Source: Octopus sinensis (taxonomy: Eukaryota). From it: a stretch of 21,616 nt of DNA. How positions within the stretch are numbered: the stretch's first letter is position 1; each line of letters opens with the position of its first letter. The stretch is taken from contig NW_021823667.1 in assembly GCF_006345805.1 (NCBI RefSeq), positions 1-21,616 on the forward strand, written 5' to 3'. Both the position numbers and the translations under genes were made by a program. The notes below the pieces were generated by a model, which worked only from the letters and a program-made list of their open reading frames with translations, searched no databases and was not told the origin of the DNA. Below are positions 1-16,432 of the stretch, in pieces.

Positions 1-239
1 TTTGTACGTACATAAATTATGCAAATTAAGGAATGCATGATGGTGTGATATATACTACATGCATACAGACATAAATATATATATATATATATATATATAC
101 GCCCTCAATCGGAACCATAAATATTCTACAGTACAGGAGAACCATTAGCATTTTTTTATTATATATTGTCAATAACGAAATCATCCAAATATGACAAGAA
201 TTACAAGAAAATTTATAAAACCAACGTAAGAAGGTGGAC

Positions 240-245
<6 letters not shown>

Positions 246-338
<93 letters not shown>

Positions 339-445
339 TATATATATATATATAATGTACAAGTACGCGCACATATCTGTATATATATATGTACACACAC
401 AAACGTGTGTGTGTGTGTCTGTTTGTGTGTGTGTGTGTGTGTGTT
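246..445. repeat. Compound (TA)n/(TG)n microsatellite
   Basis: Dinucleotide runs read directly. The overlapping YIYI/HTHT ORFs are translations of this repeat. Confidence 0.95.
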
Positions 446-734
446 TGTATGTACAATAATCCACCGTAGAATGCGTAAAGCAGAAATGAAAAATGTAACC
501 GTAAATTCAGAAATTTGTCAATCTGAAAAGTAAAGTGCGTCAAATGCATTAACACTAAAAGGTTGTGGCGAAGTCAAAGCTCACACCCTACAAACCCACG
601 TGTGTTCAATATATCTGCTTACACATACATATGTCTATATACATAAATATATATATGTATATAAGAGTGTACGTATGTTTATAGCTCTGCATCTATCTCT
701 TTAAATCTATATCTATTTATACTTATATGTTATG

Positions 735-767
<33 letters not shown>

Positions 768-775
768 TATATATT

Positions 776-813
<38 letters not shown>

Positions 814-850
814 TATATATATATAATATATATATACAATATATAAATCT
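735..850. repeat. Interrupted (TA)n microsatellite
   Basis: Read directly. Confidence 0.95.
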
Positions 851-1778
851 ATATCTACGTATATACGTATATGTACGAACATAATCACAATGTTGGGAAC
901 ACTACCATACCGAATAACATTTATACCCATTTATGCCAATCCTTAATTCCAACGATTTTACATGACCGAGAACCATTGAAGCTGTAATTTATGATTTTTA
1001 TTTGTCTTCTATTCTTTTACCCATTAGTGTAGTAAATGTTTATTATATATTTTCATATTTCTTCCATTCTTTCTCTTATATTTCCCGCTCCGTATTTTTC
1101 TCCATTTTATTCGCAGTTCCTTCTTCTTATTTTTTTTTTCTTTATTGGAATCTCAAAGTTTGATTTTGCTATTCGTTTATATTATAGTTTTCTATTTCCA
1201 TTTTAGAATTTATATAGGTTTTGTGTCTGGTGGATTTTCTTTGTTTCGCTTTATTTATAGAAATTGTTCCATCTTAGTGAAATACTTTGTGTTTGTATAA
1301 ATGAGCGTATGTGTGTTAAAGGGTGGTTTAGTTTGGGCTTTTTTCATGAAATAATTGTTTTGTGCCGGATTAATAATCGTGTGTAAATACACAGACGCAC
1401 ACAGACGCACACACACACACACTCACACACACACACACATTGTCTTATTTATATATACCATTTAGATATAAATGTACTATTGCTAAGAAACATCGATTTA
1501 GTTCCTTTCAAAAATTTTAGAATTTTCTACATAAAAACTTATAAGTACATACAGACACGAAGAGGTACACACACACACACATACACACACACACGCACAT
1601 ACGCACAAACCCATGCACACGCACACTCACTCACATACTCACATATACAAACAAACATTTTTTAGATATTAACTTACACACGAGCAGAAACATCAATACA
1701 ATATTCACAAAGATTTAAATATATGTCCATACACGCCGATATTTCACTTACATTATATATGCGCCCATAGATCTATGG

Positions 1779-1823
<45 letters not shown>

Positions 1824-2444
1824 TATATATGTATATAGCTACATGTATGCATACACGTGTATATACATACACATACATAGAAACACATTGTACGCATGTA
1901 TACACGCATACACACACATATATATATATATAATATATATACAAAGATAAATATACATAGTATATATATATTATGTATGCATATATGTTTGTGTGTTTGT
2001 GTATAATAAATGTATGTGTGTGTGTGTGTGAATCTTTGCTTTACCAATATGATTGTATTTTCGGTATTACTCCGACTACCAGAAGACGTTTCATTGTCGA
2101 GTGTTTTGTGTACCACAAAAATTGAGTTCAACTATTGTCTGAACGAGTTCGAAGTCATCATTCTCAATTCATTCAATACAACGTCGCTACTGTTATTTCA
2201 TCGTCCAAGTTACCCCATCACCAAATCTGCATTAGCAGACACCACACCCTTCGATTTCTATGAACTAGCTTCACCGCTTTGTCTACTGTTTCTATCAATA
2301 TTTCTGACTGTTATAATATAAATTTTCTTTTTGTCTTCCCACTGAGCTTTATTACAAATATTTATTACCTGATATAATATTACAAACATCTCCGCCCAAA
2401 CACGACGATTCTCACACTACAATATATATATATTATATATTATG

Positions 2445-2605
2445 AGAAGCTTGGTCCCAGCCACATGGTTCCGGGTTCAGTCCCACATGAGTCAGCTTGG
2501 GCAAGTGTCTTCTACTATAACCTCGAGCCGACCGAATCCTTGTGAGTGGATTTGGTAGACGAAACTGAAAGAAGGCTGTGACATATATTTGCCTATATAT
2601 ATGTA

Positions 2606-2676
<71 letters not shown>

Positions 2677-2965
2677 CACATATATATATATATGTATATA
2701 TATGTATATTATTATATATATATATATATATAATATATATATATATATATAATATATGTATATACAATATATATGATAATATAAATAATATATGTGTATG
2801 TGCGTGTGTGTGTGCTGTGATGTATATGTGTGTCTCTGTTAGTCCCCATCATCGCCTGACAACCGATATTGATATGCTTATGTCTCCGTAACCTAGCGAT
2901 TCGGCAAAAGAGACTGATAGAATAAGTACTAGGCTTACAAAGAATACGTGCTGGGGACAATTTGT
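2445..2965 (+). mobile_element. tRNA-headed SINE, family A, with an internal microsatellite; both ends trimmed
   Basis: B-box-like GGTTCAGTCCC at ~2475 and body to 2582, then a (TA)/(TG) tract at ~2595-2826, then a 3' module (ATCGCCTGACAACCG...AATAAGTACTAGGCTTACAAAGAAT). Homologous segments occur at 3010, 3661, 4178, 13570 and 17058. Confidence 0.85.
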
Positions 2966-3009
2966 TATATGTATTATTTGTGTGTATTAGAAATATTATG
3001 TTATTTTAT

Positions 3010-3226
3010 TCGTTTACTTGTTTCAGTCATTGAATACGGCCATGCTAGAGCACCACCATTAGTCAAAAGAATCGTCCTTAGGACTCATTGTTTGTAAGCC
3101 TAGTACTTATTCTATCAGTTCTTTTGCCGAACCGCTAGGTTACGGTGACAGAAGCACATCAATATCGGTTGTCAGGCGATTGTGGAGGAGACTAACACAG
3201 ACACACATACACATACACATGAACGT

Positions 3227-3250
<24 letters not shown>
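3010..3250 (-). mobile_element. SINE family A, 3' module (inverted)
   Basis: Reverse complement aligns with 2826-2965 and continues to the family end (GACTGAAACAAGTAAA). A (CA)n tract sits at the internal junction. Confidence 0.88.
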
Positions 3251-3261
<11 letters not shown>

Positions 3262-3274
3262 ATATATATATTTA

Positions 3275-3500
3275 AGGCGGCGAGTTGGCAGAAACGTTAA
3301 CACACCGGGCGAAATACGTTGCCGTATTTCGTCTGCCGTTACGTTCCGAGTTCAAATTCCGCCGAGGTCGACTTTGCCTTTCATCCTTCCGGGGTCGATA
3401 AATTAAGTACCAGTTAAGCACTGGGGTCGATGTAATCGACTTAATCCCTTTGTCTGTCCTTGTTCGTCCCCTCTATGTTTAGCACCTTGTGGGTAGTAAA
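3275..3500 (+). mobile_element. tRNA-headed SINE, family B (Meta/MESC-like core), alternative tail
   Basis: Head GGCGGCGAGTTGGCAGAAACG and B box GAGTTCAAATTCC (3348-3360). Core GGTCGACTTTGCCTTTCATCCTTCCGGGGTCGATAAATTAAGTACCAG recalls the Meta/MESC SINE domain (from memory). The tail matches the array units at 15745-16295. Confidence 0.85.
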
Positions 3501-6149: not shown

Positions 6150-6275
6150 TAATATTAATAATAATAATAATAATTGTCATAATCATAATCATAATAATAA
6201 TAATAATAATAATGATAATAATAATAGTAATAATAATAATGATGATGATGATGATGATAATAATAAAAATAAAAT
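6150..6275. repeat. (AAT)n/(GAT)n trinucleotide tract
   Basis: Read directly. Confidence 0.95.
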
Positions 6276-6827
6276 GCCTTGATGCAGTTCAAGGCAGTGG
6301 CTCTCGTGGCTTCTGATCTTAATTGCGTGGAAGTGTTATCATGTACATGTTTTCCCTTGGTATAAACGAAGGGCTACAGCAAATGTTCTGCTCAATACCA
6401 CAGATTTGCTTGTCAGTTATTTGACGTTAACCAGTTGAGCATGTCCCTTAGTGGCTGACAATATGTGCATCTCTGATCAAGAGCAGGAGTAGTGGGAGAG
6501 CATCATAGCCTTGTGTTGAAAGGAATTCTTGAAGGTTTGGATAATTCATCTTTGGAAAAATGGGTGGTTCGTTCAATATCTTTAAACAATCCTTATTCAG
6601 GGACGTTTTGAATGGGATGGGCTACTAAACCAGAAGAAAATTCTAACTGGGCCCCATCCGCAAGGTCATGCGCTGTTTATCTTGATATGAGATCACCATG
6701 TCGCGCACATATGGTTGTGATGCATGAGCCTGGTGACCCTTATCAGACATGAAGTCATGATGGGTGTACTGGGCTTCGTATATTTTACTCCAGTGTCACT
6801 TTGATGGCATGCACTGCTCTCTCACTC
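6276..6827. mobile_element. ~550-bp non-coding interspersed element embedded in an (AAT)/(GAT) microsatellite
   Basis: Complex block, richer in GC than its flanks, with abrupt edges and AAT-family repeats in the same orientation on both sides. No long ORF. It resembles a repeat I recall from octopus DNA (unverified). Confidence 0.6.
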
Positions 6828-6828
6828 A

Positions 6829-8679: not shown

Positions 8680-9062
8680 TATTCTCGTGCCGGAGTTAAG
8701 GTTACTTTACAGAAGGCTTTTAGGAATCCATACATTTACCATGCGCTGTACTTGGCACAGCTCCCGAAGATTTCGTTGCTGCAGAAAGGGAAACAAATAA
8801 GTATCTCCACAGGAACCAAAATCTCATTCTCGAAGACTCTGTTACTCCACTTGACATTTGAATTTGATTCAGGTTCCGTAGCTGGAAGACATTAAGAGAC
8901 AACTCAAGTCTGGAGTAGTACTGCAGAGGGGCACGCTGTCAGAAGTGAAGGTGCTAAGGATACAGCGACCGTAGAATACAATATTGGTGAGCAGTCTTCG
9001 CTTACATTTCTTCCGCACTATAGTTGTTCAGCTTGCTGGTGTTGCAGTTGCTCTCCCAGTAA
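8680..9062 (-). mobile_element. Degenerate RTE-clade LINE fragment (region C-terminal to RT)
   Basis: Colinear frameshifted minus-strand peptides FYGRCILSTF, LNVFQLRNLNQI, VKWSNRVFENEIL and LQQRNLRELCQVQRMVNVWIPKSLL*SNLNSGTR. These parallel the RTE pattern (Y.ACVLSTL..LN.FHLR.LRRI..IKWQDRV.N.EVL..RLRW.GHV.RM...RIPK.LLY.EL..G.R). Confidence 0.7.
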
Positions 9063-9077
9063 CAGAATACGTACATA

Positions 9078-9849
9078 AATTTGTTCATTCAGACAGATAT
9101 ACATTTAAAAGAGACAGTGAAATACTCGGAGAAACAACATGCAAACTAATAGCCAGTTTATGTCTTATTTCTATGGAAGACATTACATATATCATTATCA
9201 GCTGCTCAAAAGTGTCATCCAGTAACTACCAACGTATACGACACGACATTGTTGCTAAAGCAATATACAATGCCGATCAAAAAGAGATTACCCTGGAATA
9301 AATACAGGGAAACCCGTTGCAATTGAATAAATATACACGGTTCAGCTCATGGAATATTGGTGCAGCATTCTTATCAAAACTTGTAGTAACATTAGTAACA
9401 TTAGTCAGTTGCAAATATAACAGGCTGGATATCGTCGTTTCTGACAGACATGGAAATATATATACCGTCATAGAGCCCAGCTTCCCTGCTGATGTGATTA
9501 ACTCTTCGAATGTGATTAACTCTGCGATCGTATGGACACTGCTTCGAAAACTCCAGTTTCAATATTCAGATTATAAATTAATACGACTAATAATTGGTGC
9601 ACTTGGTTTTGTTAGTAGATGCCTAACTGAAAATGAAAAACCTAGAATTTTCAGCAATCAACCATCTAATTCACATATTCCAAACACAAACGGTACTGTA
9701 AAATTATGCCAGACTTTTCTTAAATTTAAGGAATGAAATTGTTTTTGTTACTTACATTCTCAAGATGACGGAGCATTGTAACTTTCCTAGAAATCAGGTC
9801 TTTCCTCAGAGGAAGCTTTCAACTAAGTAACAACAGAAAAAGACAAAAC
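9078..9849 (+). mobile_element. 5'-truncated R4/Dong-clade RLE non-LTR retrotransposon relic (copy 1)
   Basis: Decayed CCHC knuckle and RHD motif (LCLISMEDITYIIISCSKVSSSNYQRIRHDIVAK). Restriction-like endonuclease region (NRLDIVVSDRHGNIYTVIEPSFPAD...IIGALG) ending CQTFLKFKE* at 9736, then a ~110-nt 3' UTR. Flanked by the 11-bp direct repeat ATACGTACATA (9067-9077, 9850-9860). Confidence 0.9.
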
Positions 9850-10037
9850 ATACGTACATACATACATACATACATACATACATACATACATACATACATA
9901 CATACATACATGCTTGCATGCATGCATACATACATGCAAGCATACATACATACATACATACATACATACATACATACATACATACATACATACATACATA
10001 AATACATACATACATACATACATACATACATACATAC
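9849..10037 (+). repeat. (CATA)n tetranucleotide array between the two R4-clade elements
   Basis: Read directly; a few CATG variant units. Confidence 0.97.
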
Positions 10038-11751
10038 TATACAGATAGTATAGGCATCTCAGAGGGAATATTCCAAGGAGATAGCCTTTCTGTACTTCTT
10101 TTACTCTTGGCACTGAATCCATTATCATTCCTACTGCAGAAAACAAATGGTTACATGCTAGGATCTTCAACTGCTAGAAATATCAATGTAACTCATAATT
10201 TCTTTGTAGACCAGATTTATGCTAAAGTGTAAAGAAAGTGGAAAAACAGCTGGAATTAATAACAACGTTTTTAGCTGAGAGAAACACGTTCATATTTGGT
10301 TATTGAACGAAATATATCAGTCCTCCAAACCCAAAACCTGTGCATCAACGGTCTCTCTATCTCCCCCATTCCATACAAATAATGTTACTGCAAGTACTTA
10401 GGTATAGCTGAAGATGTATCATATGAAGACACTGTGAATGAAGATAGAGTGACCCGAGAATATTACACCAGACTTAGGAAATCAGAGCAGTGGGAACTTT
10501 CCTCTTACAAGACAGTATCTCACAATGCATCTGTAGTACCATTGGTGATTCAAGCATTTGGAATACTTGATTGGTCTGTAGAGGAAATCCAATCCATAGA
10601 TATCAAAACGCGCAAAATCCTGACAATAACTTAGAACATCCACAGAAATTGTGATGTTGAAAGAGTCTACCTATGAAGAAATGAAGGTGGTAGATGACTG
10701 GGATCAATGCAGACGGCCTTCGAATGACGTATGACATCCTTTAGGCAGCACCTGCTAAACAGCAGCAGGAAAAATAAATATATAAATGCAATGCTGGAAA
10801 GTGAAGTGGGTAACATTTTAGGAGTTGGCTGCGAGCTCCTCAAGAAGCTGGGCTCTCTTACCGCAGAGAAAACCTGGATGGAAAAAAAGACTATGCATGG
10901 GTATGTTGCTCGGAACCTTGAAGAAGACAGAATTGATAGGTACAGCAGCCTCTCTTGGAAACAAGATCACTACATCCCATGATTCTTTGAAGACTATGCG
11001 TTTGCAATCCATGAACAGGAGATTACCCCAAAGTACCTGGTGAGCATGAATGACAGTGACGCTCTCGTAATCCCAAGGTGCAACCGCATGTGTAGGCTAT
11101 GTCATGTTTCTGTGGAAGACATCACGCATGTGATTAGCAGGTGTCCTAAATAAGTTGTCATCACACTACTACCTCCCCATGCGGCATGATATTGTGGCTA
11201 AAATAATTTACAATGCCATCCACATAAAAGACTGTCCTGAACTAAACATAGAAAATCCCTCTATTATGGAATACATTCATAAACACCAACTCAAGGAATC
11301 TTGCTAGGAATATTCCCATAAAAAGACTCTCAAATGTAAGCATAACAGGACAGATGTTGCTGTTTGGGACAGAGGGGCAAAGGTATGTACCATCATAGAG
11401 GTCAGCTGCCCTGCAGATATAAATCTTCAAAATCAAAGAAAAAGAGGATAGCTATGGACAACTATTTCGAAATGTCTACCTTTTGTATTCAGACTATGAA
11501 TTCATGTTCATGCCGATGTTAATTGGAGCAATAGGTTTTGTTAATAAATGTTTAAAGGAGAATATGAATAAACTGGGGTTTTCAGAAAGAGAAATAGACA
11601 CGTAGAACAGTAAATAAATGTAAGACTTTTCTCAAGTTCCAAATGTGAATTTGTCTACGTTAAGTACATCACAAAGATGGAGCCTTGTCTCTTTGTTAGA
11701 AACCAGCTCCCCCCTCAGTGGAAGATTTATAATAATCTAAAAATAGAAGGG
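10038..11751 (+). mobile_element. 5'-truncated R4/Dong-clade RLE non-LTR retrotransposon relic (copy 2): partial RT, CCHC, RLE and 3' UTR; inactivated
   Basis: From 10065, in order: GIFQGDSLSVLLLLLALNPLSFLL, THNFFVD (broken YxDD), CKYLG, FGILDWSVEEIQSIDIKTRKILT, RVYL*RNEGGR*L, MHG, CRLCHVSVEDITHVISRC, RHDIVAK, RTDVAVWDRGAKVCTIIEVSCPAD, IGAIG, CKTFLKFQM*. Many stops and frameshifts. Followed by ACATACATACAT (11752-11763). Confidence 0.93.
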
Positions 11752-11816
11752 ACATACATACATCGGGACATATAAATTTGGTGATGCAATCAACAGAAAT
11801 AGAACTCAAGCCATGA

Positions 11817-14021: not shown

Positions 14022-14920
14022 TATTGGGTCATCCCATAAATAATGCGGTATTTTTATATGTTTATTTTTGAAAATTAAGATAATCGAAGCTCTTTTTCAA
14101 TCTAAAATATATTCTCCTTCATTTTCTACAAAACTCTTCCATCTATCTGGTAAACTTGCAAGAGCCCTCTTCCAAAATTCCCTTGTCCGTGACGAAAAAT
14201 AATCCTCCACTACTGTTCTAACCTTATCTCCAGAATTCTTATTTTTTCCGTCCAAATGATTTTGAAGACTGCGGAATAAAGGAGAATCAGATGGGGCAAA
14301 GTCCAGTGAATATTTTAGGTGGGGCATCGTTTCGCATTCAAACTGTTCCAGCCTTTGGAATGTCACCCTCGCATTATCCTGATGCTAGAACACCTTCCAT
14401 CTTGAAACCTAAGAGGGTCGTTTTTCTTCAAGCGCTGATTGGAATGACTGGTTGAATGACCAAATCCAAGCTTCTCTGTTAGTTCTTCAACTGTTATAAT
14501 GGAATTTTGTTCCATTAAGGACGTCCTCGTCGAGATCTACAGGTCTTCCAGGACGAGACTCGTCTTCTAGGCTTGAATTTCCGGCTCGGAATTTCTCGAA
14601 CCACCGTTGACACTTGCTTACGCTTATCGTCCGATCCCCATATACTGCATAAATATTCATCGCAGTTTCCGTTGCGCTGTTGCCTTTATTGAACTCATAA
14701 AGCAAAATATGCCGAATATGCTCCTTTGCCACTTCCATTATAACTTTGAAAAAATAACTGTTACAATCGAACTGCACTCTTCAAAACTTGCACTAAGAAT
14801 AGGACAAGGAAAAATTATTACCTGCTTTTATAGCAAGTTGATGCAGGTAGCTTATCCCGCCCCGTCCGACTTTTAGTTCATGCAATTGAAAAAAAAGCAT
14901 TATTTCTGGGATGAACCATA
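14022..14920 (-). mobile_element. Mariner (Tc1/mariner, DD34D type) transposon with an internal deletion
   Basis: TIRs TATTGGGTCATCCCATAAATAATGC (from 14022) and GCATTATTTCTGGGATGAACCATA (to 14920), with TA at both ends. Transposase remnants lie inside. About 900 bp versus ~1.3 kb for a typical mariner. Confidence 0.93.
14097..14738 (-). pseudogene. Mariner transposase pseudogene
   Basis: N-terminus MEVAKEHIRHILLYEFNKG...WFEKFRAGNSSLEDESRPGRP. Catalytic remnants HQDNA and YSLDFAPSD, C-terminus RWKSFVENEGEYILD*. The WVPHEL motif and first catalytic Asp region are deleted, and frameshifts and stops are present. Confidence 0.92.
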
Positions 14921-15699: not shown

Positions 15700-16432
15700 C
15701 AGTGAGCAGGTAGAAACCTTAGCACGTCGGGCGAAATGCTTAGTGGTATTTCGTCTGCCGTTACGTTCTGAGCTCAAATTCCCCCGAAGTCGACTTTGCC
15801 TTTCATCCTTTCGGGGTCTATTAAGTAAATACCAGTCACGCACTGGGGTCGATGTAATCGACTTAATCCCTTTGTCTGTCCTGTTTGTCCTGTCTGTGTT
15901 TAGCCCCTTGTGGGTAGTAAAGAAATAGGTATTTCGTCTGCCGCTATGTTCTGAGTTCAAATTTCGCCGAGGTTGACTTTGCCTTTCCTTCTTTCGGGGT
16001 CGATTAATTAAGTACCAGACACGCACTGGTGTCGATGTAATCGACTTAATCCTTTTGTCTGTCCTTGTTTGTCCTCTCTGTGTTTAGCCCATTGTGGGTA
16101 GTAAAGAAATAGGTATTTCGTCTGCCGTTACGTTCTGAGTTGAAATTCTGCGGTAGTCGACTTTGCTTTTAATCGTTTGGGGGTCGATTAAATAAGTACC
16201 ATTTATGGACTGGGGTCGATATAATCGACTTCATCCGTTTGTCTGTCCTTGTTTGTCTTGTCTGTGTTTAGCCCCTTGTGGGTAGTAAAGAAATAGGTAT
16301 TTCGTCTGTTGCTACGACTTTGCTTTTCATCGTTTCGGGGTCGATAAATTAAGTACCAGTTGCGTACTGATCGATCCAATCGTCTGGCTCCGCTTCTCCA
16401 AAACTTCGGGTCTTATGCCTAGTGTGGAAAAG
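15700..16432 (+). repeat. SINE-B-derived tandem array: one head, three 183-184-bp units and a final deleted unit with a standard-type tail
   Basis: Units begin GGTATTTCGTCTG at 15745, 15928, 16112 and 16296. The first three end TTGTGGGTAGTAAAGAAATA. Confidence 0.92.

Follow-up and report, generated by a model that had tools for sequence, protein, structure and literature searches.

Two broken retrotransposons lie one behind the other in the genome of Octopus sinensis, and both abut arrays of the tetranucleotide CATA. The question raised by this locus is whether such repeats are the place where the lineage inserts, in a fixed orientation, or only a tail that the element carries with it. The window analysed here is the whole 21,616-nucleotide stretch, which is one entire contig (NW_021823667.1) of a 2.7-Gb genome, and the two copies were compared with their relatives in the octopus, in metagenome contigs and in the literature.

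Two LINE copies on a shared CATA array

The preliminary description had reported two clearly different LINEs placed head-to-tail in the same orientation, and this arrangement is confirmed (Table 1). The copies are co-oriented homologues with about 65% DNA identity, belong to two families (B and A), and both contain stops and frameshifts. Copy 1 retains remnants of a zinc knuckle and of a restriction-like endonuclease followed by a 3' UTR, and nothing else; in tblastn it matches residues 969-1156 of P0002, and its best-scoring genomic relative is 69% identical. Its end motif extends past the profile bound to about 9847, so the claim that it ends directly in (CATA)n holds, the array being called as a tandem repeat at 9848-10043 (196 bases, (ACAT)x48.8, period 4, 92% matches). 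Copy 2 starts where this array ends, also as proposed, with GIFQGD from 10065, a CCHC knuckle at about 11091-11144 and an endonuclease core at about 11341-11412, in which the PD motif reads TD. Its relatives are 76-82% identical over their main matches (best 40 of 5450 candidates scored). The CATA run said to follow its 3' end was located as well. A CATA-like 11-mer described at the 5' junction of copy 1 stood in part: CATA is present there, but the copy starts at about 9107 and not just past 9067, and the whole interval between is a decayed array, with a number of in-phase matches reached by 563 of 29,880 background windows (1.9%). A tblastx match upstream of copy 1 (about 9004-9081) was without profile support and was discarded.

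Table 1. Positions of the two LINE copies, the CATA arrays and the 3' UTR motif in the window
Feature	Position	Strand	Basis
Decayed (CATA)n array, 5' junction of copy 1	9067..9106	+	28/40 in-phase CATA matches
Copy 1, family B, old, 5'-truncated LINE	9107..9847	+	Profile B 9107-9839, E 1e-149
(CATA)n array shared by the copies, 3' of copy 1 and 5' of copy 2	9848..10041	+	Tandem repeat
Copy 2, family A, truncated 5' inside the RT	10042..11751	+	Profile bounds
3' UTR motif in copy 2, common to families A and B and the 109-base piece C	11679..11710	+	Predicted hairpin
Short CATA run (ACATACATACAT), 3' junction of copy 2	11752..11763	+	12 bases

The 3' UTR motif folds as a single strand at -10.6 kcal/mol in copy 2; the consensus folds are weak in families A (-0.8) and B (0.0) and reach -7.1 in piece C. 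The modelled hairpin is likely the RNA site bound by the reverse transcriptase. Elsewhere the window contains a non-coding repeat of ~555 bases between TAA-type arrays (6273-6828; 7 matches in 600 kb), a 184-base unit repeated 3.1 times and built from a dispersed SINE-like repeat (15745-16308), and two minus-strand frames (14097-14780) which we take to resemble a broken mariner-type transposase.

Genome searches recovered family A (copy 2), family B (copy 1), a family D with a different 3' region, the 109-base piece C and, apart from these, a young family T. The single lineage first proposed is therefore at least three CATA families in this genome (A, B and D), although all of them fall in one wider clade. 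Matches to A, B, C or D numbered 11, and those to T 7, across 600 kb of evenly spaced DNA, from which we roughly infer tens of thousands of fragments genome-wide. The number of candidates rises from 164 with a 5' query to 2394 with a 3' query, as in ordinary 5' truncation. Family T has intact frames of 1235 residues, about 98% alike, stacked in TAA arrays (L182, L181-L200). No intact copy of the CATA lineage was present among 40 scored genome matches, where every intact frame belonged to the TAA family; all ten best CATA-lineage matches of the protein search contain stops, and a Pfam search of four broken fragments gave no match.

The 3' end of family D contains an internal CATA tract, and about half of the D copies end there, which could be due to internal priming, to later deletion between two arrays or to a composite born of stacking. 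At L171, L173, L235, L241, L248, L259 and other loci, D is often followed by the CATA tract and then by piece C with the A/B 3' motif. Piece C was considered as a separate short element, having CATA 5' flanks in 26/27 cases, and this was rejected: it follows D in 12/25 D copies (by profile), and a D end lies upstream in 16/27 C copies. Because its 5' CATA may be element-encoded, piece C was left out of the targeting count. The 5' part is inverted at L022 and L424, as from twin priming or later inversion.

CATA at the insertion junctions

Family profiles were mapped on 174 loci, of which 156 remained after removal of 7 duplicates and of 11 with a 5' end at the locus edge or unmapped. A junction was scored as CATA when a CATA 8-mer occurred within the 30 bases upstream or the 4 bases inside, and the background was 119,640 windows of 34 bases from the 600 kb of evenly spaced DNA. 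The copies are the best-scoring matches of each search and not a random sample, and they were ranked on element sequence only.

Our results show that 53 of 105 5' junctions carry CATA on the same strand as the element (A 35/61, B 7/19, D 11/25), against a background of 1.5% per strand, and that only 4/105 carry it on the reverse strand as TATG. Both the genome-wide enrichment and the fixed orientation anticipated from the two copies are thus found. The signal decreases with distance, to 12/103 at 120 bases and 4/96 at 500, and it persists when only bases outside the alignment are counted (50/105), when one copy is taken per truncation point (43/86) and among the copies retrieved by a short 3' query (17/24). 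Among the 64 flanks holding any tested microsatellite, CATA accounts for 50, its share in the background being 11.8%. TAA was seen at none of 105 5' junctions and none of 101 3' junctions of families A, B and D; the 5' junctions of family T, used as control in the same genome, gave TAA in 21/24 and CATA in 0/24. The (CA)n repeats are mildly enriched at 5' junctions (11/105), so the target specificity is loose.

Truncation points of family A are spread over profile positions 168 to 3434, which implies that the upstream CATA is not a fixed part of the element, but a target and not a tail; CATA also precedes full-length 5' ends of this family in 18/21. The other 52/105 copies have no CATA at the mapped 5' junction, a share with the target repeat below that of the TAA control, and copy age together with later insertions may be proposed as the explanation.

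The 3' junctions are less informative. CATA follows the element equally often when the 5' flank is CATA (27/41) and when it is not (24/35; Fisher p 1.0), so the element, through its RNA, may contribute to the short 3' run, and the 3' runs fail as the independent evidence of targeting for which they had been taken. Among the 63 copies with a located A/B end, this conserved end is followed by CATA in 29, CACA in 6 and TACA in 5, and a 3' junction fixed in this way supports a defined start of reverse transcription. Where a neighbour lies no more than 300 bases away, it has the same orientation in 22 copies and the opposite one in 3 (p 1.6e-4), in agreement with the suggestion that the lineage piles up in its own target; together, this co-oriented stacking and the strand-specific junction bias support the view that it targets CATA in a fixed orientation. 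When paralogous empty sites were sought for 101 copies of A, B and D, a single clean case emerged: L010 interrupts the microsatellite inside a common repeat, of which 45 paralogues are empty, and 14 of these contain CATA. The remaining matches, in which stacked family members or arrays matched themselves, were rejected. Among 27 copies whose 5' flank is not a repeat, target-site duplications were no more frequent than expected by chance (at least 8 bases in 2, shuffled mean 1.9).

A probable separate branch of the R4/Dong group

Of 80 loci retained from a scan of metagenome contigs, 21 were inspected, each outside element being a single assembled contig. Among the seven closest relatives (38-49% identical to the query), L322 is flanked by CATA on both sides and L323 by CTTA on both sides; CTTA lies at the 5' end of L321 and L325 and at the 3' end of L327, and the other two have no flank. 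More distant relatives are flanked by TAA in 12/14. Targeting by these metagenome elements is judged from their flanks and should be considered putative. In a tree of 83 rows, a branch with 100% SH-aLRT separates 14/14 TAA rows from 21/21 CATA/CTTA rows. In a tree with six distant RTs as outgroup and without named sequences of R4, Bombyx Dong, Rex6, HERO or NeSL, the CATA/CTTA rows and the octopus families form one clade (100/100), grouping, also at 100/100, with TAA-flanked Dong-like elements whose lineages around it are unresolved. This topology suggests that a TAA target may be ancestral to CATA/CTTA. Both the CATA rows and the CTTA rows are divided among branches, so more than one change of target took place inside the clade. 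The clade sits on a separate long branch, is 27-34% identical to TAA-type proteins and includes a 1098-residue Argonauta protein.

Several of the metagenome relatives have intact frames, and that of L322 is 1179 residues long without a break. At least half of its words occur in 16 listed sequencing runs, labelled sediment, biofilter, biofilm and unspecified metagenome, and four public runs cover it at 95% identity or above; contigs of these four runs aligned to L322 contained no truncated junctions, and no relatives were found in the viral contigs searched.

Intact relatives consist of a single ORF with RVT_1 above the cut-off and with CCHC, RHD and PD..E motifs, that is, a reverse transcriptase, a knuckle and a C-terminal restriction-like endonuclease; of this layout, the two copies in the window retain no more than remnants. 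By profile they match R2 proteins from the RT to the C-terminus (E 2e-67), and R2 proteins are also the best match of the predicted fold of L322 (E 3e-35). The N-terminal domain has three predicted helices and aligns with the domain of TAA-flanked elements. Its fold matches are mostly Myb/SANT-like at Z of at most 6.6, which is below the reliable range for helical bundles, with a Foldseek E of 1.7, and it had no Pfam Myb match. In the third helix (L322 residues 61-73), a K/R-x-L-R-x-Q-A pattern was noticed by eye in the CATA/CTTA clade and other patterns in the TAA-type proteins, which makes this helix a candidate specificity site.

The junction counts and the metagenome flanks agree with the R4/Dong trait of insertion into rDNA or microsatellites. 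A Dong in the strict sense, defined by a (TAA)n target, does not describe these families given the absence of TAA at their 5' and 3' junctions, and neither does Waldo, defined by an AP-type endonuclease, since theirs is C-terminal and restriction-like. [quoted passage not shown] As far as these papers (PMC3812793, PMC7998251) describe Dong, DongAg, DongBg and the ostracod Dong, our elements share with them the single ORF, the N-terminal three-helix domain, the RT, the CCHC knuckle and the restriction-like endonuclease, as well as insertion into a microsatellite in one orientation and stacking in the target. They differ in target, (CATA)n or (CTTA)n as opposed to (TAA)n, and in their separate long branch at that level of identity.

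The 5' ends may differ too. Where Bombyx Dong is reported to have a self-cleaving HDV-like 5' ribozyme (PMC3774820), a DPE-like motif, RGWCGTKY, was noticed post hoc in family A ends, with 8/8 bases in 13/20 and 7/8 in six more. L322 matches 8/8, L321 and L323 7/8, L325 6/8 and, by hand count, family D 7/8; these elements share descent. As controls, 1/126 background CATA arrays had 7/8 at that distance, and one TAA control had 7/8. The same sequence is described in PMC1636488 as a downstream element around +29 to +36 in Jockey, Doc, F, G and I, and most family A copies and L322 match it in all eight positions. Unlike in those elements, the motif comes after no more than 13-22 element bases in A, D, L321, L322 and L323, so that +1 would fall in the upstream repeat, which hints at a possible start of transcription inside the target repeat. 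Phase counts in family A were discarded because a pyrimidine-A at +28/+29 is automatic in (CATA)n and hence uninformative, which leaves the motif and its distance as the features that matter. No ribozyme was among the Rfam matches to E 10 on 7 loci, the matches obtained being repeat artefacts, and an HDV-like descriptor found 0/17 family A ends and 0/4 relatives, but also 0/2 TAA-type controls, so that it had no working positive control. Some TAA-flanked Dong-like contigs (L329:84-168 and the starts of L340 and L343) have tRNA-like heads, with an ARAGORN tRNA-Gly in L329 only, suggesting a putative Pol III promoter in some TAA-flanked lineages.

Choice of the insertion site

We consider it probable, at about 0.7, that the window contains two dead copies of a separate R4/Dong-type branch residing in (CATA)n in one orientation, whose protein likely recognises the repeat and nicks the TATG strand so that reverse transcription is primed there. 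This reading is directly supported by the junction bias and its strand, the stacking, the RT-CCHC-endonuclease layout and the single clade with CATA/CTTA relatives; that the protein, and not RNA pairing, would do the recognising is drawn from analogy with known elements.

The strongest alternative accepts the bias as real and ascribes it to RNA-DNA pairing, a loose endonuclease producing an insert only where it nicks at a place at which the CAUA tail pairs with (TATG)n. The independence of the 3' run from the 5' flank would fit, and so would the D copies that end at the internal CATA tract and the low-rate use of (CA)n and other related repeats. Nevertheless, the target class tracks protein phylogeny across a long branch, the third-helix pattern seen by eye differs between the clade and the TAA-type proteins, and R4-clade elements are reported as target-specific (PMC4640811, PMC7998251); we therefore regard pairing alone as an unlikely cause. 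It is far less probable that CATA is an element-encoded tail only, with the 5' association coming from a microsatellite-rich genome or from passive survival near repeats. CATA arrays are common and the 3' run behaves like a tail, but the 35-fold enrichment, the 53 to 4 strand asymmetry, the distance decay, the many truncation points and the lack of CATA at TAA-family junctions of the same genome largely refute this explanation. That truncated copies acquired their 5' CATA afterwards, through deletions joining a 5' CATA head encoded by the element to internal sites, could draw on the full-length copies starting at CATA and on an RNA that, should the DPE-like motif be functional, may begin with some CAUA units; this explanation can be dismissed almost entirely, as it needs dozens of independent deletions each ending exactly at the array, ignores the climb in copy number toward the 3' end typical of ordinary 5' truncation, and leaves the stacking of different families unexplained.

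If the protein does recognise the repeat, the N-terminal three-helix Myb-like domain and the endonuclease would choose the site, as R2/R4 biology leads one to expect. By analogy with R2 and Dong, the TATG strand would be nicked, a few CAUA units at the 3' end of the RNA would probably pair with the nicked strand, and reverse transcription would usually end early, the cDNA being joined to upstream CATA. Every insertion would then be flanked by CATA on both sides and offer a landing place for later copies; in the window, the older copy 1 would have come first and copy 2 later, into the array of copy 1. A wider scenario, which we consider doubtful, is that an old clade switched from TAA to C(A/T)TA, and that the element holds only a downstream promoter element for which the flanking repeat gives the start; only copies in the right repeat would be transcribed, and their RNA would begin with target sequence that could guide 5' joining.

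The type of target is itself already known. WaldoAg1, WaldoAg2 and WaldoFs1 use ACAY microsatellites according to PMC3812793, the same repeat class (ACAT/ACAC) as here, and as Waldo, for which the source paper cited is on the R1 clade, has an AP-type endonuclease and our elements a restriction-like one, the likeness is convergent. (TG)n is the target of Togen, and microsatellites that of some HERO families (PMC4640811). A CATA- or CTTA-specific R4/Dong family was not found in the accessible portions of the literature searched, a search outside which Repbase and Dfam lay; what was available of PMC5035012 and PMC13586686 had nothing on a CATA/CTTA target, and that of PMC11203168 had no term matches. 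Cephalopod genome papers list 'Dong-R4' repeats and, in their accessible text, name no target (PMC13282606, PMC8967140, PMC9115989, PMC10294476). The families described here are probably among the repeats so labelled, and in this genome they make up, next to the young TAA lineage, a second, decayed and deeply separate one.

Here, the counts and the in-genome control demonstrate that the target bias is real and strand-specific, in a branch that stands apart within the known R4/Dong kind. The R4/Dong clade thereby gains a target class, and the 'Dong-R4' label used for cephalopods probably spans two lineages that differ in target. L182 (TAA), L322 (CATA) and L323 (CTTA) provide natural pairs of related proteins for three targets, with an intact example of each, which makes the source of specificity testable, whether it is the N-terminal Myb-like domain, the endonuclease or RNA pairing, and this bears on R2-type insertion tools. 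For the octopus, the stacking of the CATA lineage suggests one source of the co-oriented CATA stacks found in its DNA.
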